NCBI GenBank assembly: GCA_040905425.1
Contig: JBBDRO010000023.1
Span: 1 to 10,299, forward strand
Length of the DNA stretch: 10,299 bases
From: Gemmatimonadota bacterium
GTDB lineage: Bacteria; Gemmatimonadota; Gemmatimonadetes; Longimicrobiales; RSA9
Direction: 5' to 3'
The translations under genes and the position numbers were made by a program. Under the pieces are notes generated by a model that made no database searches, was not told the origin of the DNA, and saw only the letters and a program-made list of their open reading frames with translations. This document shows positions 2,882-10,299 of this stretch, one piece after another. Every line of letters begins with the position of its first letter. Position 1 is the first letter of the stretch.

Positions 2882-3055
2882 TGGCGCCGCCTCGACCGTC
2901 TATCCCTCCCCCGCCGCCCAGGCGGGTGCGGAGCTCGCCACGATGGTGATCCCCGCGCTGTCCCGGACCCTAACGTTCCGCGCGACACCCGCCGCATCGT
3001 GGACGACGGCAAAGAGCAGCAGGACGGCGAGCCTGGCGCATCGGCGATCGATCAT
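2882..3055 (-). pseudogene. 5' remnant of a secreted RDSAG-motif protein gene (6-bladed beta-propeller-type family), with a nonsense codon and truncation
   Basis: GGAGGT RBS (3060-3065, minus strand) lies 4 nt before ATG 3055. Translation: MIDRRCARLAVLLLFAVVHDAAGVARNVRVRDSAGITIVASSAPAWAAGEG*TVEAAP. It has a signal-like N-terminus followed by VRDSAGITIV...PAW..GEG(W), which I recall as the N-terminus of Gemmatimonadota secreted propeller proteins. TAG at 2900-2902 sits where a TGG (Trp) is expected. Confidence 0.6.
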
Positions 3056-3183
3056 GCGTACCTCCAGCTCAGATTCGCGGCGGCGATCAGGCGCTGCGGA
3101 ATATCGGGCGCTGCGTAAGATCGAGCGTTCCTTGAGACGGGTCTTACATGCCAATCAAAGCGGCACGCGTGGCATCCGGTTTC

Positions 3184-3315
3184 CGCGCGAGCGGGTTTGA
3201 TGCGAATCATTGCTATCATACGCCCATGTGCGCCCGCCCGCACTCGCGCGTGCGGGATTGACGCGAATAATTGCGACCAGATGCAAACGCGCGGCGCACC
3301 CGCCCCGCGCGTGCG
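3184..3315. repeat. Imperfect 61-nt-period tandem repeat in a divergent intergenic region
   Basis: CGCGCG(A/T)GCG starts at 3184, 3245 and 3306, a period of exactly 61. Units 1 and 2 match at 29 of the first 35 nt. Their cores are TTGATGCGAATCATTGCTATCA (3197-3218) and TTGACGCGAATAATTGCGACCA (3258-3279), 18/22 identical. Confidence 0.7.
3211..3219 (+). promoter_or_regulatory. Possible extended -10 promoter element (TGnTATCAT) upstream of the M20 gene
   Basis: TGCTATCAT in a locally AT-rich patch, with no correctly spaced -35. A similar TGCTATAAA occurs on the minus strand at 3319-3327. Confidence 0.25.
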
Positions 3316-3458: not shown

Positions 3459-4676
3459 ATGCCGCCTGAGCACACCGATCCGCTGGCCCCGCTCCTCGAT
3501 GACGCGCGCGTCCGCGCCGCCCTGGAAGCCGCGCGCGCCGCGCACTTGCGCACCGTGGCCGACCAGCGGGAGGTCGCCGCCATCCCGGCGCCGACCGGGG
3601 ACGAAGGCGCACGCGCGGACTGGCTGGAGGCGCGCCTGCGCGAGGCCGGGGCGGCCGACGTGCACCGGGACGAGGCCGGGAACGTCGTGGCCACGCTGGG
3701 TGGCCACAGCGCCCACACCGGCAGCCACACAGGTGCCGAACCCGGCGCGATCCTGGCGGCCGCCCATCTGGACACGGTCTTCCCAGCCGGCACGGACGTC
3801 GAGGTGCGCGAGCAGGATGGTCGCCTGCTGGCCCCGGGCATCTCGGACAACGGCCGCGGCCTGGCCGCGCTGCTCACCCTGGCGCGCGTGTGGCGGGAGG
3901 CGGGGCTCACCGCCGCCCGGCCGGTGGTGCTGGTGGGCACCGTGGGCGAGGAGGGCAGCGGCGACTTGCGGGGGGCGCGCCACCTGCTGCGCGCGGGTGG
4001 CCCGTGGCGCGGTGCGGCCGCCTTCGTGGCCGTGGACGGCGGCGGACAGGAGCGCATCGTGCACCGCGGCATCGGCGCGGGGCGGCTGCGGCTGGAGGTG
4101 CACGGGCCCGGCGGCCACTCCTGGTCCGACTGGGGGCGGCCGAACGCGGTGCACATGCTGGCCGGTGTGGTGGCCCGCCTGGCGGAGCTGGAGCTGGAGG
4201 CGGAGCCGCGCACCACGCTCACGGTGGCGCGCATCGGTGGCGGCACGAGCATCAACGCCATCCCTGCCACGGCCTGGGCGGAGGTGGATCTGCGCGGCGA
4301 GACGCAGGCGGCCCTCGACGCGCTGGCGGCCCGGGTGCAGGGCGTGCTCGAGCGGTCCGCACAGGGGGAGGCGGGCCCGGACGTGCGGGTGAGCGTCATC
4401 GGGGACCGCCCGGCGGGCGCCACCCCCGTCGAGCACCCGCTGGTCCGGCTGGCGGAGGCGGCCACGCGGCACGTGGGCGGCCAGCCCGAGCTGGCCGCCT
4501 CCTCCACGGACGCCAACGTGGCCATGGCCGCAGGCATTCCCGCGCTGGCGCTCGGCGCCGGCGGGGACGCGGGCGGCACACACACCCCCGCCGAGTGGTT
4601 CGACCCCACGAACGGGTGGCTGGGGGTGCAGCGCTGCCTGCTGGTGCTGCTCGGGGCGGCTACGCTGGCGGACTGA
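3459..4676 (+). CDS. M20/M25/M40 family metallo-hydrolase (peptidase T-like), 405 aa
   Basis: Metal and catalytic motifs AHLDTVF, GISDNGRG, GTVGEEG, C-terminal STDAN and THTPAEW, plus dimerisation-domain motifs GPGGHSW and GGTSINAIP. Strong G/C third-position bias in this frame. Confidence 0.93.
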   Translation: MPPEHTDPLAPLLDDARVRAALEAARAAHLRTVADQREVAAIPAPTGDEGARADWLEARLREAGAADVHRDEAGNVVATLGGHSAHTGSHTGAEPGAILAAAHLDTVFPAGTDVEVREQDGRLLAPGISDNGRGLAALLTLARVWREAGLTAARPVVLVGTVGEEGSGDLRGARHLLRAGGPWRGAAAFVAVDGGGQERIVHRGIGAGRLRLEVHGPGGHSWSDWGRPNAVHMLAGVVARLAELELEAEPRTTLTVARIGGGTSINAIPATAWAEVDLRGETQAALDALAARVQGVLERSAQGEAGPDVRVSVIGDRPAGATPVEHPLVRLAEAATRHVGGQPELAASSTDANVAMAAGIPALALGAGGDAGGTHTPAEWFDPTNGWLGVQRCLLVLLGAATLAD

Positions 4677-4688
4677 ACGGGCGGGGCG

Positions 4689-4720
4689 GCGCACCCGGCC
4701 CCGGCACGGGGAGGGTGCGC
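4689..4720. terminator. GC-rich hairpin between convergent genes (possible terminator/pause; no U-tract)
   Basis: GCGCACCC (4689-4696) pairs with GGGTGCGC (4713-4720) and encloses an inner stem CCCCG-GCA-CGGGG (4699-4711). It lies in the 55-nt gap between two convergent stop codons. Confidence 0.35.
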
Positions 4721-4731
4721 GGCCGGGTCGC

Positions 4732-5724
4732 TTACTCCCCCAAGACCTCGGCGTCGGCGCCGATGTTCACGCTGCCGGACACGCCGCGCACCACCGCCCG
4801 GTCCCCGACCATGGCATCGTGCAGCGTGGCGTCCTCGATGCGCGCGTCGCGGCCGATAATGGCGTCCCGGAGGGTGGAGCCGCGCACCGTGGTGCCGGCC
4901 GCGATCGTGACGTTGGGACCCACTTCGACGTCCTCCAGCGTGACGCCCTCCTCAATGCGCACGGGTTCGTGGTAGCGCACGTTGCGGCCGCCGTCAGGAC
5001 GGCGACCGCGCGTGGTGGACAGCAGGTGGCGGTTGGTCTCCAGCAGCGTCTCCACCTTGCCGCAGTCGTACCAGCCCTCCACCTCCTCCACGCGGATCTT
5101 AGCGTCGTGGTCCACCATGTACTGGAAGGCGTCCGTGAGGTAGTACTCCTCACCCGGGCCCTTGGGGCCCTTGAGCGCGTCATCCACCCCCTCGAAGAGT
5201 AGCTCCCAGTCCCGGATGTAGTAGAGGCCGATGTTGGCCAGCTTGGAGATGGGGTCCTGCGGCTTCTCGATGATGCGCTTCATGTTGCCCTCGTCATCGG
5301 TCACGATGACGCCGAAGCGCTGGTAATCTTCCACCTCCTTGGCCCAGATCACGCCGGCGGAGTCCTCCGGCAGGCGCTGCACGAGCGAGAGGTCCGCGTC
5401 GAAGAGGGTGTCCACGAACATGATCAGGACGTCCTCGCGCACGTGCGGCTGGGCCAGCTTCACCGCCCCCGCGGTGCCGTCCTGGACCTTCTGCTCCACG
5501 TAGGTGGCGCGGAACTGCGGGTACTCCTTCTGGATATAGTCTTCGATGCGCTCCTGGAGGTAGCCCGTGATGAAGATGACCTCCTCCACGCCCAGCTCCA
5601 GCAGGTCATCCAGGATGTAGCTCATCACGGGACGCCCGCCCACGTGGACCAGGGGCTTGGGCTCGGACCAGGTATGGGGGCGGAGACGCTTTCCCTTCCC
5701 CGCCAGCGGGATGATCACTTGCAC
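4732..5724 (-). CDS. Sugar-phosphate nucleotidyltransferase (glucose-1-phosphate thymidylyltransferase-like) with C-terminal hexapeptide repeats, 330 aa
   Basis: N-terminal IIPLAGKGKRLRPHT...PKPL signature, QDGTAGAV, RFGV, IIEKP, ANIGLYY, EYYLTDA, WYDCG, and a left-handed beta-helix-like tail (VGPNVTIAAGTTVRGS..DAIIG). GTG 5724 is chosen because GAGAGGA lies at 5731-5737 (minus strand), 6 nt upstream. Confidence 0.93.
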   Translation of the reverse strand: MQVIIPLAGKGKRLRPHTWSEPKPLVHVGGRPVMSYILDDLLELGVEEVIFITGYLQERIEDYIQKEYPQFRATYVEQKVQDGTAGAVKLAQPHVREDVLIMFVDTLFDADLSLVQRLPEDSAGVIWAKEVEDYQRFGVIVTDDEGNMKRIIEKPQDPISKLANIGLYYIRDWELLFEGVDDALKGPKGPGEEYYLTDAFQYMVDHDAKIRVEEVEGWYDCGKVETLLETNRHLLSTTRGRRPDGGRNVRYHEPVRIEEGVTLEDVEVGPNVTIAAGTTVRGSTLRDAIIGRDARIEDATLHDAMVGDRAVVRGVSGSVNIGADAEVLGE

Positions 5725-5871
5725 GCGTGCTCCTCTCGTTGTGTACACCCGGCGCGCCGCGCGCGTCCGGTTCTTGCCGTCTTGCGGGCCAAGGTAGGCC
5801 CCCGTCGGGGGGCGACGCTATCGCCATGCCCGCCCGCCACGTAACGTACGCTCACACCACCGAGGATGGAT

Positions 5872-6603
5872 ATGAAACGTCATCTGCTCGCTACCGCCCT
5901 GTTGCTCGCCCCGGCCGCCGCCACGGCGCAGCAGGCCGAGGCTCCCCGCACCGTGAGCGTGAACGCCACCGCCACGGTCGAGCGCGCGCCCGACGAGGCC
6001 GTGCTGAACGTGGCCGTGGTCACCGAGGCCGAAACGGCCGGCCAGGCCGCCAGCGCCAACGCCGATCGCATGGCGGCCGTGGTGGCCACCCTGCGCGAGC
6101 TGGGGCTGGAGAATCGCGACATTCGTACCACCTCCTACAACCTCTCGCCGCGCTACGCGCGTACGCAGCCGCGGGAGGGCCAGACGGCGCCCATGATCGT
6201 GGGCTACACGGCCACCAACAACGTGTCCATCACAGTGGATTCCATTCCGCGCGTGGGCCCGGTCATCGACGCTGTGGTGCGGGACGGCGCCAATCGCGTG
6301 GATGGCATCTTCTTCCGCATCTCCGAACCCGAGCCGCTCCACATGGAGGCCGTGCGGCGCGCCGTGGCCCGGGCGCGCGCCGAGGCGGAGGTGCTGGCGA
6401 GCGCGGCGGGCGAGCGGCTCGGCCGCGTGCTGACCATCACCACGAGCGGCTACACTGCGCCGCCGCCGCGGCCGATGTACAACATGGATATGGTGCGTAT
6501 GGAGTCCGCACAGGCGGCGCCTACCCCCATCGAGGGCGGTGAACAGTCGGTTTCCGCGTCGGTGAGCATGGTCTTCGAACTGGTGGGCGGCGGCGCGCCG
6601 TGA
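5872..6603 (+). CDS. SIMPL (DUF541, YggE/BP26-like) domain periplasmic protein, 243 aa
   Basis: Signal peptide MKRHLLATALLLAPAAATA. SIMPL hallmarks: TVSVNATATVERAPD, IRTTSYNLSPRY, GYTATNNVSI, GANRVDGIFF, AVARARAEAEVLA, TPIEGGEQSVSASVSMVFEL. GAGGA at 5862-5866 favours ATG 5872 over ATG 5866. Confidence 0.93.
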   Translation: MKRHLLATALLLAPAAATAQQAEAPRTVSVNATATVERAPDEAVLNVAVVTEAETAGQAASANADRMAAVVATLRELGLENRDIRTTSYNLSPRYARTQPREGQTAPMIVGYTATNNVSITVDSIPRVGPVIDAVVRDGANRVDGIFFRISEPEPLHMEAVRRAVARARAEAEVLASAAGERLGRVLTITTSGYTAPPPRPMYNMDMVRMESAQAAPTPIEGGEQSVSASVSMVFELVGGGAP

Positions 6604-6627
6604 GCGCCCGCCCGTGAGGAGGAGCGC

Positions 6628-7026
6628 GTGACGACGGGCGCACGGACCGACCCCGAGACGGCGGACGCGCGCTTGCGCGGGCGCACCTACCACGTCCCCT
6701 TCGAGGACGTCTGGCAGGCGGCGCGCGCCCTGGCCGACGGCGGCCAGCGCGGCTGGACGCTGCTCACGGCGGATGACCAGGAGGGCGTCATCCTGACAAA
6801 GGCGAGCGTGCTGCTGCGCAAGACCATCGATGACGTGCGCATCACCATCCGCCTGGACGAGGACGCCCAGACCCGGGTGGACGTGCGCGCCGCGCCGCGC
6901 GAGGGCGGACGCGACTTCGGCCGCAACCGGCGCCGCATCGGGCGCTTCCTGAAACGCCTGGACGGGGAGGTTCCCCGGGCGGCGGAGCGGCGCCGGGAAG
7001 CGCGCGCGGCGGCGCCGGGCGCCTGA
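6628..7026 (+). CDS. DUF1499-like protein, 132 aa
   Basis: GTG start after GAGGAGGAG. The pattern GW......G.I......L...DDV.I......TRVDVR...R.G..DFGRN.RRI..FL..L is typical of DUF1499. The stop overlaps the next ATG (TGATG, 7024-7028). Confidence 0.8.
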   Translation: MTTGARTDPETADARLRGRTYHVPFEDVWQAARALADGGQRGWTLLTADDQEGVILTKASVLLRKTIDDVRITIRLDEDAQTRVDVRAAPREGGRDFGRNRRRIGRFLKRLDGEVPRAAERRREARAAAPGA

Positions 7027-7931
7027 TGCGCGTGCTGGACTTCCACACCCATCCCTGGCGCCCCGCCGACCTGGCCGCCGCCACGCGCGGCTTCATCGAG
7101 CGCATCTCACCGGCCGTGCGGCGGCACGGCGAGCGCCTGTCGGACCCCGTCCACGCGGCGGAGCTGCTGCGCGCCGAGGGGATCGAGCGGGCCGTAGTGC
7201 TGCCGGAGCACTGCCCCGCCACCTCCGGCGTGGTGCGCACGGAGGCGGTGCTCGAGCACTGCGCCGCGGCCCCCGACGTACTGCTGCCCTTCGCCAGCGT
7301 GGACCCGGTGAGCGACGCCGAGCCCGCCGCGCTGCTCCGCGCTTACATTGCCGCGGGCGTGCGCGGGCTCAAGCTCTACCCGTCCTACCAGTTCTACTAT
7401 CCGAACGAGCCGCGCGTCTACCCGCTCTACGAGGCGTGCGCGGCGGCGGGCATTCCCGTGCTGCTGCACATCGGCAGTTCGGTGATCCCCGGCACGCGCC
7501 TCAAGTACTGCGACCCCATCCACCTGGATGACGTGGCCGTGGACTTTCCCACGCTGCCCATCGTCATGGCGCACGGCGGGCGCGGCTACTGGCACGCCGA
7601 GTGTGCCTTCCTGGCGCGCCACCACGCCAACGTGTGGATCGACGTGGCCGGCCTGGTGCCGGAGCAATTGCCGCGGCTCTTTCCCGCTTTCGAGCGGGTG
7701 GCGGAGAAGATGATCTTCGGCAGTGACTGGCCCGCCATGCCGCGCAGTCCCGGCGCCAACGTGGAGACCATCGCGGGGCTGGGTCTGCCCGACGCCACGC
7801 TCGCGGGGCTGCTGCATGACAACGCCGCCGCCCTCCTGGGTGAACCCGCGCGGGCGGGCGGAGCGGAAATTGCGACCTCCGCGCGCCACGCCAGTGGGCC
7901 ACCCGAGCACCCTCGAACCACGGACCGATGA
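7026..7931 (+). CDS. Amidohydrolase-superfamily (amidohydro_2-type) metal-dependent hydrolase, 301 aa
   Basis: DFHTH (HxH), GLKLYP, YPLYEAC...IPVLLHIG, VMAHGG and IFGSDWP motifs. Start and stop overlap the flanking genes. Confidence 0.93.
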   Translation: MRVLDFHTHPWRPADLAAATRGFIERISPAVRRHGERLSDPVHAAELLRAEGIERAVVLPEHCPATSGVVRTEAVLEHCAAAPDVLLPFASVDPVSDAEPAALLRAYIAAGVRGLKLYPSYQFYYPNEPRVYPLYEACAAAGIPVLLHIGSSVIPGTRLKYCDPIHLDDVAVDFPTLPIVMAHGGRGYWHAECAFLARHHANVWIDVAGLVPEQLPRLFPAFERVAEKMIFGSDWPAMPRSPGANVETIAGLGLPDATLAGLLHDNAAALLGEPARAGGAEIATSARHASGPPEHPRTTDR

Positions 7932-10299
7932 CGCCGCCACGCCGCCGCGCCGAGCGCTACCCTCTCCTGCCGCTGCGCAGCACGGCCGTCTATCCCATGG
8001 CCGTGCTGGGCGTGCAGATCGGTATGCCGAGCACGCTGGAGATGCTCTCGGCCCATCCCGGCCCCGGCCTGCTGGCCGGACTGGTGGTGGCGCCCGGCGA
8101 GCCGGACGATGCCATCGAGCCGCACACGCTGCACAAAGTGGGCGTGCTGGTGCGCGTCTCCGACCGCCTGAACCTGCCGAGCGGCGCCATGCAGGCCACG
8201 CTGCAGGGCGTGCGGCGCGTGCGCCTGCGCGGCGTGAAGGAGCAGGCGGGCTACCTCACCGCCCTGGTGGACGAGCTGGACGAGGAGGCGCCCGACCCGG
8301 AGCGCACGGGTGACCTCATCGCGCGTATCCTGAACGCCCTGGAAGCGCTCTCGGCGCGCGTGGACCGGCTGCCGCGCGAGGTGCCGCGCATCCTGCGCAT
8401 GAACCTGGGTGATCCCGGTCGCTTCGCGGATCTGGTGGCGTCGCTGGCCAACTTCAGTGTGGCCGAGAAGGACGCCATGGTGCAGCTCGTGGACGTGGGT
8501 GAGCGGCTGGACTTTGCCTGCCATCAACTCGAGGAGCAGCTGGCCGACCTCGAGCCGGCGGGGGAAGGCGCCGCCCCGGCGGCGGAGGTGCAGGAAGCGC
8601 CGGCCGAGGCCCCGCAGCCCCGCACGCCCGCCGAGCGCGCCAACCTGCTGCGCCAGCGCATCCAGGCGTTGCAGGCCGAGCTGGGCCAGGTGGACCCGCT
8701 CGAGCGCGAGGTCATCGAGCTGCTGCGCCGGGTGGACGCCGCCGACCTGCCGGCCGCCGTGGCCGCGCAGGCCCGCATGGAGGCCGAACGCCTGCGCGCC
8801 ATCCAGCCCGGCAGCCTGGAGGGCAACGACGTGCGCAGCTACGTGGACTGGCTGGGCAGCCTGCCGTGGCGCGCCGAGGCGGCCGAGTCCCCCGGAGACA
8901 TCGACCTGGGCGCGGTGCAGCGGGAGCTGGACGAGGCCATCCTCGGGCTGGACGACCAGAAGGAGCGCCTGCTCGACTACCTGGCCGTGGCCCGCCTGCG
9001 CGGCGACCTGCGCGGTCCCATCCCCTGCATCGTGGGCCCCCCGGACGTGGGCAAGAGCTCCCTGGTGGCGGCGCTCGCGCGCGGGCTGGGCCGGCCGCTG
9101 GCCCACCTCGAGCTGGGCGGCCGCGGTGAGGCGCAGCTCGTGGGCACGCGCCGCACCCGCGCCGGCGCCTCCCCGGGCAAAATCCTGGGCGCCCTGCGCG
9201 ACGCCGCCGTCCGTGACCCCGTGCTGATGCTCGGCCAGATCGACGAGATCGGCATGGGCAAGGTGGAGGGGGACCCCGTGGAGGCCATGGAGGAGGTGCT
9301 CGACTTTGACGAACGCAACGAGTTCGTGGACCGCTACCTGGACATCCCCTTCGACCTCACGCGCGTCACCTTCATTGCCACGGCCCACGACTTCTACAAG
9401 ATCCCGCGCGACCTGCGCGCACTCATGGCCGAGATCCGCATCGCCGGCTACACGGCCGAGGAGAAGATCGAGATCGCCCGCGAGCGCCTGCTGCCGCGCA
9501 TGGTGGCCGACCACGGCCTGGCGGAGCGGGACGTGAGCTTCCCCCCGGAGGGGCTCTCCTTCCTGGTGCACGGCTACGCCCGGGACGCCGGCGTGGGGCA
9601 GCTGCGCCGCAACGTGGCCACCCTGCTGCGCACCCGGGCCCGCGCCCGCGCCGGCGGTGACGACTCCACGTGGGTCTTCGAGCCGGAGCGCATCGAGAAG
9701 ATCCTGGGGCTGCCGCGCTACACCGCCACGCCCGCCGAGAGCGCGCCCGAGGTGGGCGTGGTGACCGGCCTGGCGTGGACCGCCTCCGGCGGCGAACTCA
9801 TGTTCATCGAGGCGCTGCGCATGCCCGGCAGCGGCCGCCTCATCATCACCGGCTCGCTCGGTGACGTGATGCGCGAGTCGGTCAACGCCGCCTACTCCTA
9901 CGTGCGCAGCCGCCGCGACGCGCTGGGCATCGACGACGAGACCTTCAAGGACGCCGACGTGCACGTCCACTTCCCCGTGGGCGCCATCCCCAAGGACGGC
10001 CCCTCGGCCGGCATCGCGGTGGTGCTGGCCCTGGCCTCCACGCTCTCCAACCGCCCCGTGCGCCATGACATTGCCATGACGGGCGAGGTCACGCTGCGCG
10101 GCAAGGTGCTCGAGATCGGCGGCGTAAAGGAGAAGGTGCTGGCCGCCTACCGCGCCGGCATCCACGACGTCATCCTGCCCTCCGGCAACGAGCGCGACCT
10201 GCGCGACGTGCCCGAGGACGTGCGCGAGAAGACCACCTTCCACTTCGTGGACCGCATGGACGACGTGCTGGCGCTGGCGCTGCACGGGAAGAAGCACGC
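7928..10299 (+). CDS. lon: LonA-type protease (endopeptidase La homologue) with a degenerate AAA+ module; runs off the window close to its C-terminus (>=790 aa)
   Basis: Missing from the ORF track because there is no stop in the window; translated by hand from ATG 7928 (ATGA overlap with the amidohydrolase stop). Lon N-domain: [25 protein letters not shown]. Also [13 protein letters not shown] and [18 protein letters not shown]+ region: GPPDVGKS. Protease domain: [67 protein letters not shown]. Confidence 0.95.

Follow-up and report, generated by a model that had tools for sequence, protein, structure and literature searches.

A LonA-type protease with degenerate ATPase motifs and an intact Ser-Lys dyad in Longimicrobiales

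Results

The window analysed here, a stretch of 10,299 nt from a Gemmatimonadota bacterium of the order Longimicrobiales (GenBank assembly GCA_040905425.1, contig JBBDRO010000023.1), is an entire contig (C23) of a 4.12-Mb draft genome in 115 contigs. An open reading frame on its forward strand (positions 7928-10297) encodes a paralogue of the protease LonA, which we designate LonDeg. The frame comprises 790 codons and is open up to the contig end, where its 3' end is cut; full-length relatives have around 810-830 amino acids, so that the last 20-40 codons are missing from the window copy. The protein P0003, with 94% identity in the aligned part, is 832 amino acids long.

The N-domain, long helical region, AAA+ alpha/beta and lid subdomains and S16 protease domain of canonical LonA occur in LonDeg in the same order (Table 1), and HMMER aligned the protein end to end with the solved LonA chains 7p6u (509 bits) and 6u5z (503 bits). 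The Pfam AAA model matched weakly (40.6 bits, residues 367-501), and Lon_lid matched residues 528-578. LonDeg fell below the cut-offs of the LonB model TIGR00764 (105 vs 517 bits) and of the sporulation LonB/LonC models TIGR02902 (88 vs 723 bits) and TIGR02903 (101 vs 679 bits), with matches to the protease region only. The same was true of the BrxL model TIGR02653 (54 vs 628 bits), the PADLOC match to BrxL spanning only residues 623-785. Searching the ESM Atlas with the AAA part retrieved generic Lon and AAA clusters only.

Table 1. Position and state of features of LonDeg and of the two adjoining upstream genes
Feature	Position in window	Strand	Observation
LonA N-terminal substrate-binding domain	7958..8530	+	Residues 11-201; PF02190 (LON_substr_bdg), 83.2 bits; aligns to LonA N-domain structures
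AAA+ module (alpha/beta and lid)	8915..9682	+	Residues 330-585; nucleotide and translocation motifs degenerate
Walker A-like P-loop GPPDVGKS (canonical GPPGVGKT)	9035..9058	+	Residues 370-377; position 4 Gly to Asp, Lys kept
Pore loop 1 GTRRTRAG (canonical GHRRTY[IV]G)	9143..9166	+	Aromatic Tyr to Arg411 (9158-9160)
Walker B-like strand VLMLGQIDE (canonical hhhhDE)	9221..9247	+	Asp-Glu to G436-Q437 (9233-9238)
Sensor-1 position	9386..9388	+	Asn to His (H487); alignment to LonA chains
Arg-finger position	9422..9424	+	Arg to Leu (L499); alignment to LonA chains
Sensor-2 position	9596..9598	+	Arg to Gly (G557); alignment to LonA chains
S16 Lon protease domain	9683..10285	+	Residues 586-786; PF05362 (Lon_C), 288 bits; LonA-type PKDGPSAG site
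Catalytic Ser693 in PKDGPSAG	10004..10006	+	Intact
Catalytic Lys736, second Lys of GGVKEK	10133..10135	+	Intact; 43 residues after Ser693
DUF1499 gene	6628..7026	+	Pfam; upstream, same strand in 14/14 orthologous loci examined (tblastn synteny)
Amidohydro_2 gene	7026..7931	+	Pfam; full-length matches between DUF1499 and LonDeg in 6/14 other loci

Motifs were placed by translating positions 7928-10297 and by HMMER alignment of the product to 7p6u and 6u5z. All six AAA+ positions (Walker A, Walker B, sensor-1, Arg finger, sensor-2 and pore loop) were non-canonical: LonDeg, unlike canonical LonA, has replaced the Gly at position 4 of Walker A, the pore Tyr-[Ile/Val], the Walker B Asp-Glu, the sensor-1 Asn, the Arg finger and the sensor-2 Arg. 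Conversely, it shares with canonical LonA the Pro before the catalytic Ser and the distance from this Ser to the Lys, which is also 43 in 6u5z, counted as residues in a gap-free alignment. The initial annotation of this DNA, made from the letters alone, had listed these substitutions and the Ser-Lys dyad, and each of them was recovered. Its open frame with normal codon bias was likewise confirmed up to the contig end, with a G+C content at third codon positions (GC3) of 0.95, as compared with 0.92 for the canonical lon of the same genome. Two of its items need qualification. The Walker A substitution is present, yet GPPDVGKS still fits the formal pattern GxxxxGK[ST]; and Gly-Gln at Walker B and His at sensor-1 are present in the window protein, but they are minority states in its own clade, where most members have [QHER]-E and Gln, respectively.

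A homologue search with residues 330-600 returned 606 proteins at E <= 1e-3 among 7,999 candidates scored. We analysed the best 120 of these (68-100% identical), or 119 after leaving out the window's own protein; their source labels are Longimicrobiales or Gemmatimonadota 'ATP-dependent Lon protease', 'endopeptidase La' or 'S16 family serine protease'. The position of the pore-loop Tyr was Arg in 119/119 homologues, and neither the Arg-finger position (98 Leu, 18 Met, two Phe, one Gln) nor the sensor-2 position (74 Gly, 44 Ala, one Leu) held Arg in any of them, with sensor-1 being Gln in 114 and His in five. The Walker A Lys was kept in all 119, whereas other cis-acting nucleotide-site residues varied: position 4 of Walker A was Asp in 80, His in 20, Glu in 11, Gly in four, Tyr in three and Phe in one; position 8 was Ser in 40, Asn in 26, Thr in 24, Ala in 20 and another residue in nine; and the Walker B Asp position was Gln in 52, His in 30, Glu in 15, Arg in 14 and another residue in eight. 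The protease Ser was kept in 118/119 homologues, with one gap, and PKDGPSAG and GG[VI]KEK were each intact in 119 of the 120 rows that include the window protein.

We also fetched 20 genome orthologues and analysed 18, leaving out two from unpublished genomes. The pore Tyr, the Arg finger and the sensor-2 Arg were absent from 18/18 (the pore position being Arg in 17), and the dyad was intact in 18/18. Sensor-1 Asn or Walker B Asp-Glu was kept in some members (L105, L096, L102), and no clade member kept the pore Tyr or the sensor-2 Arg. Losses reported by the initial annotation for a single protein are, therefore, clade-wide for the pore Tyr, the Arg finger and the sensor-2 Arg, in 119/119 homologues and 18/18 orthologues. 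Among 80 named GTDB loci, all of them metagenome-assembled genomes (MAGs), 29 were degenerate, with two to four of nine canonical residues and Arg at the pore position in 29/29, and 51 had 9/9, none being intermediate. The degenerate loci are labelled Longimicrobiales, Longimicrobium, Longimicrobiaceae or, loosely, Gemmatimonadota MAGs; the canonical ones, one of which is frameshifted, are labelled Gemmatimonadaceae or Gemmatimonas.

The degenerate proteins formed a monophyletic clade (SH-aLRT 100 in trees of 62 and 80 rows; 100/100 in a careful 44-row tree). With roots assumed at the midpoint or at the canonical clade, its sister was a canonical-motif clade containing P0142 (Gemmatimonadaceae) and the proteins of family f5 (support 100 and 100/99), and not the canonical LonA of its own genomes. 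Members of this Gemmatimonadaceae sister clade (P0142; L064-L081) are around 50% identical to LonDeg over the full length and have the same architecture; unlike LonDeg, they are canonical at nine key ATPase and pore residues in 18/18 sampled and 51/51 GTDB loci. The initial annotation had named close orthologues with canonical motifs as the observation that would speak for strain-specific decay or sequence error: none was found inside the clade, the nearest canonical relatives being this separate sister. The path from the shared node amounted to 1.01 substitutions per site to degenerate tips vs 0.52 to sister tips. Inside the degenerate clade, f1 and f3 split as they do in the canonical clade, consistent with vertical descent. 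Because the pore Tyr, the Arg finger and the sensor-2 Arg are gone (nearly) throughout and the cis residues are variable, parsimony suggests that these three were lost first and that the cis residues drifted later. The lineage thus holds several Lon proteins, and one of these paralogues underwent degeneration in Longimicrobiales. As a separate observation, the complete f5 genomes G136, G166, G284, G105 and G308 each encode three full-length LonAs, all scoring at least 835 bits and thus exceeding the TIGR00763 cut-off.

In 40 relatives, matches to the AAA region fell into a group with at least 58% identity and another with at most 45%, a threshold that was set after seeing the gap. The high-identity (LonDeg) group occurred in 20/24 genomes of the window's own family, f1 (17/21 without three flagged as unpublished), in 7/8 of family f3 (7/7 without one flagged) and in 0/8 of family f2. 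All 27 carriers among these relatives, as well as the window genome, also had a low-identity LonA, in agreement with the expectation of the initial annotation that every carrier might have a canonical lon. Canonical motifs were verified at every site in 13 copies from carrier genomes, in the window genome's own copy (contig C81; 874 bits with TIGR00763) and in five further LonAs. Two loci were excluded, L041, a 545-amino acid fragment, and L044, with no frame containing the motif. The C81 protein (L009) has an acidic insertion of about 70 residues (at about 2970-3230) directly before Walker A. In a phylum sample of 401 genomes, searched at E <= 1e-70, there were matches in f1 (4/7), f3 (3/4) and f5 (85/93, or 84/92 without one flagged genome), and none in f2 (0/70), f4 (0/166) or seven smaller families. 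The f5 matches were 46-51% identical, and all 18 loci fetched were canonical at every motif. Hence, the degenerate clade was found only in two families of Longimicrobiales.

We then compared LonDeg and canonical Lon by mean pairwise identity in the same 14 genomes (91 pairs). The AAA alpha/beta region evolves faster in LonDeg (identity 0.635 vs 0.877), and identities were also lower in the lid (0.587 vs 0.683) and the N-domain (0.538 vs 0.644); in contrast, the protease domain, the most conserved of the clade, reached 0.787 vs 0.750. The ratio of nonsynonymous to synonymous substitution rates (dN/dS; NG86, 5 pairs) was 0.17-0.42 for the LonDeg AAA alpha/beta region and 0.04-0.14 for that of canonical Lon, with 0.16-0.35 and 0.15-0.28 for the respective protease domains; although crude, because the estimates are pairwise NG86 values with proportions of synonymous differences (pS) of 0.3-0.5 and GC3 above 0.9, these ratios were below 1 in every domain, which was the result that the initial annotation had asked about. 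The AAA module is thus relaxed yet still constrained, and the protease domain is as conserved as that of canonical Lon.

A column analysis of residues 330-600 (20 degenerate vs 38 canonical rows) identified 11 positions fixed in both groups with different residues, including Y411R, L455E, N463R and H469R. Thirteen positions were conserved in canonical LonA only, comprising nucleotide-site residues and DP.Q around 459-462. On the other hand, 19 AAA positions were at least 90% conserved in the degenerate clade and below 50% in canonical LonA, clustering at 488-511, around the former Arg-finger segment, and there were clade-fixed gains of Arg at 463, 469, 491, 497 and 504. These clade-specific conserved positions suggest that the AAA module has been retained and partly re-specified, and is not merely eroding.

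Upstream of LonDeg, the stop codon of the DUF1499 gene overlaps the start of the Amidohydro_2 gene (TGATG, about 7024-7028), whose stop in turn overlaps the start of LonDeg (ATGA, 7928-7931), suggesting a translationally coupled three-gene unit. The recurring gene order in 14 orthologous loci was M20 peptidase, NTP-transferase (reverse strand), SIMPL and DUF1499, some with Amidohydro_2 and Amidohydro_1, followed by LonDeg, with a DUF445 membrane protein and/or an SDF dicarboxylate/amino-acid symporter on its 3' side. The block from the M20 peptidase to DUF1499 (3459-7026 in the window; loci L050-L063) is syntenic 5' of LonDeg in two families. The window's LonDeg and the canonical sister clade had no synteny in common within about 5 kb. 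We considered DUF1499 as an obligate partner of LonDeg and rejected it, since the two are not co-distributed: DUF1499 occurs in 39/41 relatives, including the four f1 genomes with no LonDeg match and 7/8 f2 genomes, and we make no claim of partnership. As to a defence context, the match to BrxL through the protease domain was the only one that PADLOC gave, with no BREX genes nearby. The SIMPL protein has an N-terminal hydrophobic stretch that, judged by eye, resembles a signal peptide, and positions 228-2381 of the window encode a 717-amino acid frame whose N-terminal part matches the SEC-C zinc motif (39 bits); a DUF6930 match is weak, and the remainder has no assignment.

Two kinds of Lon-related proteins outside the clade also show altered motifs. 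Protein P0257 (MCJ7507206.1) from Zixibacteria has the full LonA architecture, with Asp-Glu to Glu-Gly at Walker B, Asn to His at sensor-1 and Leu at the Arg-finger position; unlike in LonDeg, the Tyr of the pore loop and the Arg of sensor-2 are still present, and the protein branches several nodes away from the clade, indicating a separate, partial degeneration. Proteins P0122, P0124, P0126 and P0133 contain two or three tandem Lon-type AAA+lid modules without a LonA N-domain; one Lon_C follows the modules in the first three, and P0133 gave no Lon_C match. In some of these tandem-module proteins, flanking modules have a degenerate Walker B or sensors and one module is canonical, with the pore loop HNRTW.

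Discussion

Lon is the textbook example of a one-chain ATP-dependent protease. The initial annotation had proposed that the window encodes a LonA with lost ATPase motifs and an intact protease site, and our motif, clade, phylogeny and selection results all support this as a reading of the sequence. On balance, we favour the view that LonDeg is a protease ring independent of ATP hydrolysis, similar to LonC, that arose independently inside LonA, and whose AAA module serves as scaffold and gate. That LonDeg has lost its ATPase activity, that it assembles into a ring, which class of substrates it takes and whether it binds a ligand are inferences from sequence data, as is the choice between an ATP-independent peptidase, a nucleotide sensor and a hetero-oligomer partner. 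Source annotations of clade members as 'ATP-dependent Lon protease' or 'endopeptidase La' are probably wrong.

The comparison with known Lon types frames this proposal. Four subfamilies are described, LonA, LonB, LonC and the proposed LonBA, with LonC defined by an ATPase lost through replacement of essential residues and its MtaLonC/TTC1975 peptidase listed as MEROPS S16.007 (PMC9569914). In the same account, the residue before the catalytic Ser is Pro in LonA and Asp in LonB and LonC (PMC9569914). LonC is characterized by LonC-specific insertions and by the absence of the LonA N-domain (PMC9569914, PMC3391209); on this last point the literature bears out the initial annotation, which had set ATPase-inactive LonC apart for the same reason (PMC9569914). 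In MtaLonC, the P-loop is reported to resemble Walker A (GPPSLGKHE), the Walker B-like motif to have no Glu, sensors 1 and 2 to be replaced and the Arg finger to be disrupted; the protein showed no ATPase activity, bound six nucleotides and degraded substrates processively (PMC3391209). Unfolded substrates are degraded without ATP (PMC3391209, PMC13069640). LonC rings are described as open when phosphate-bound and as closing on ATPgammaS, inhibitor or substrate (PMC13069640).

LonDeg and LonC (MtaLonC, PDB 4fw9 group) thus have in common a retained GPPxxGK, the loss of Walker B, sensor-1, sensor-2 and the Arg finger, and an intact Ser-Lys dyad. Unlike LonC, LonDeg has the LonA N-domain and Pro, not Asp, before the Ser, and its sole match to the LonC chains of the 4fw9 group was of 33 bits, in the protease domain (residues 642-758). 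Since the degenerate clade nests inside LonA, its ATPase-motif loss is independent of that of LonC. In the titles and abstract openings retrieved from the open-licence literature of PubMed Central (PMC) and bioRxiv, we found no description of a Lon with LonA architecture and degenerate ATPase motifs, subscription journals being outside this scope. There, LonC was the only ATPase-dead Lon, which leaves standing the suggestion of the initial annotation that LonDeg may belong to an undescribed subfamily.

In the mechanism that we propose, LonDeg is a vertically inherited LonA paralogue, specific to two Longimicrobiales families, in which the Tyr of the pore loop, the Arg finger that acts in trans and the Arg of sensor-2 disappeared on the stem of the clade. 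Constraint was then relaxed at four nucleotide-site positions, namely the Gly at position 4 and the Thr at position 8 of Walker A, the Asp of Walker B and the Asn of sensor-1. Most likely, the AAA+ module was kept as a non-hydrolysing scaffold and gate, holding an oligomeric ring over an S16 Ser-Lys chamber that is still under full selection. By analogy with LonC, LonDeg would act as a self-compartmentalised peptidase for peptides or already unfolded proteins, and unfolding at the expense of ATP would fall to the canonical LonA that the genome also encodes. Since the Lys of its P-loop is invariant, LonDeg may plausibly bind a nucleotide or phosphate without hydrolysing it.

Several observations weigh against this proposal. 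The protease sites of canonical LonA need ATP binding for their activation. LonDeg passes, if marginally, the endopeptidase La model TIGR00763 (623.4 bits vs a cut-off of 608.05), although it misses the stricter cut-off of NF008053 (512.7 vs 891 bits). The Walker B Glu is kept in 110/119 homologues, with Gln in the remaining nine, L014 and L021 keep the Walker B Asp-Glu, and L018 has a full GPPGVGKT; together with GxxxxGK and its invariant Lys, this suggests that nucleotide binding or residual activity is possible in some members. Among the five representatives of 50% clusters, P0135 is the only one with Arg at the finger position, and in both P0129 and P0135 the Ser and Lys motifs were not seen in the alignment, perhaps because genes called from metagenomes contain frame errors, or because some members are truly decaying. 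To these should be added that all LonDeg carriers seen are MAGs or metagenome contigs, the assumed roots of the trees and the crude dN/dS estimates.

A bolder version, which we put forward tentatively and consider rather improbable as a whole, is that the clade represents a LonA turned into an energy-free, permanently 'ATP-like' ring, with a phosphate-mimicking P-loop, a rewired finger interface and an Arg-lined pore for acidic or polyanionic clients. In such a ring, Asp, Glu or His at P-loop position 4 (111/119) would, with the invariant Walker A Lys, mimic a bound phosphate, and the conserved Asp/Arg cluster at 488-504 would make direct subunit contacts at the former Arg-finger interface. 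If so, the protease would be constitutively assembled and gated by a ligand or by substrate charge rather than by ATP turnover. The LonC solution would then have been reached a second time and independently, in a protein that retains the LonA N-domain.

Alternatively, LonDeg could be a regulatory or structural subunit in mixed hexamers with canonical LonA, where, like the dead subunits of other AAA+ hetero-rings, it would tune the cooperativity of the ATPase or the choice of substrates. The presence of canonical LonA in every carrier searched, the retention of the LonA scaffold, N-domain and lid, and the new clade-specific conserved residues at the former Arg-finger interface are compatible with this idea. 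However, canonical Lon is nearly universal, so its co-occurrence with LonDeg carries little weight; within a genome the identity of the two proteins is only 38% overall, with 25% for the N-domain, about 70 amino acids are inserted before Walker A in the canonical partner clade, and the two genes lie on different contigs. Furthermore, the dyad is invariant and the protease domain exceeds that of canonical Lon in conservation, both of which argue that LonDeg's own proteolysis is the selected function. To our knowledge, there is no bacterial Lon hetero-hexamer, and we regard a mixed ring as unlikely.

It is also conceivable, and in our opinion distinctly unlikely, that LonDeg is a protease gated or directed by polyanions, in which the RRTR pore and the P-loop Lys bind polyphosphate, nucleic acid or acidic tails that switch on or target proteolysis. 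The replacement of the pore Tyr by Arg411 in every homologue suggests that the Arg itself is under selection, and the further clade-fixed gains of Arg point in the same direction. Nevertheless, the idea is purely inferential, the two Arg before the Tyr are already present in canonical LonA, and no polyphosphate or nucleic-acid genes were seen among the neighbours.

We give very little credence to a working ATP-dependent Lon with compensating residues, for which the initial annotation had pointed to an Asp-Glu three residues downstream of the normal Walker B position (D439-E440) and to an Arg two residues before the finger (R497). The window's Walker A pattern and its passing of TIGR00763 would fit, and both D439 and R497 are invariant in a 37-sequence alignment, but neither is a new feature: canonical LonA already has Asp at 439, followed by Lys (DEIDK), and often Arg at 497, beside the true finger (PLRDRME), so compensation by these residues was rejected. 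Additionally, the Mg-ligand position 8 of Walker A is Asn, Ala, Gly, Lys or Arg in many members, and the sensor-2 Arg, the finger and the translocation pore aromatic are gone in all; the variation of sites between members suggests relaxed constraint and argues against an alternative catalytic solution.

Lastly, decay to a pseudogene, or an error of sequencing or assembly, which the cut at the contig end and the 115-contig draft might suggest, was rejected and has a negligible probability, given the open frames of 18/18 genome orthologues and about 120 metagenome proteins, dN/dS below 1 in all domains, a GC3 of 0.95, the invariant dyad and identical sequence in independent contigs. As to these contigs, X1 and X2 are identical to the window over 7900-10299, but are possibly the source of this assembly. 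Pieces X3 and X4, which come from two other samples taken in the same study, show no difference from the window and span the codons of Walker A, the pore loop, Walker B, the Arg finger and sensor-2. The contention of the initial annotation that the losses reflect repurposing, not decay, is thus supported by their clade-wide occurrence, dN/dS below 1 and the intact dyad: motif loss common to, and conserved across, one order looks like a repurposed enzyme, and not like a broken gene.

Up to now, the only described ATPase-dead Lon has been LonC, a distant branch without the LonA N-domain, which already shows the same principle. The LonDeg clade would add a natural knock-out of hydrolysis and translocation residues in an otherwise complete LonA, with built-in controls in its canonical-motif sister clade and in the canonical paralogue of the same cells. 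It opens the questions of which roles the scaffold and N-domain of LonA fulfil when no ATP is turned over, of how activation of the protease site can be uncoupled from the ATPase cycle and of the order in which an AAA+ motor decays, the pore Tyr, the Arg finger and sensor-2 being lost in all and the cis residues drifting.

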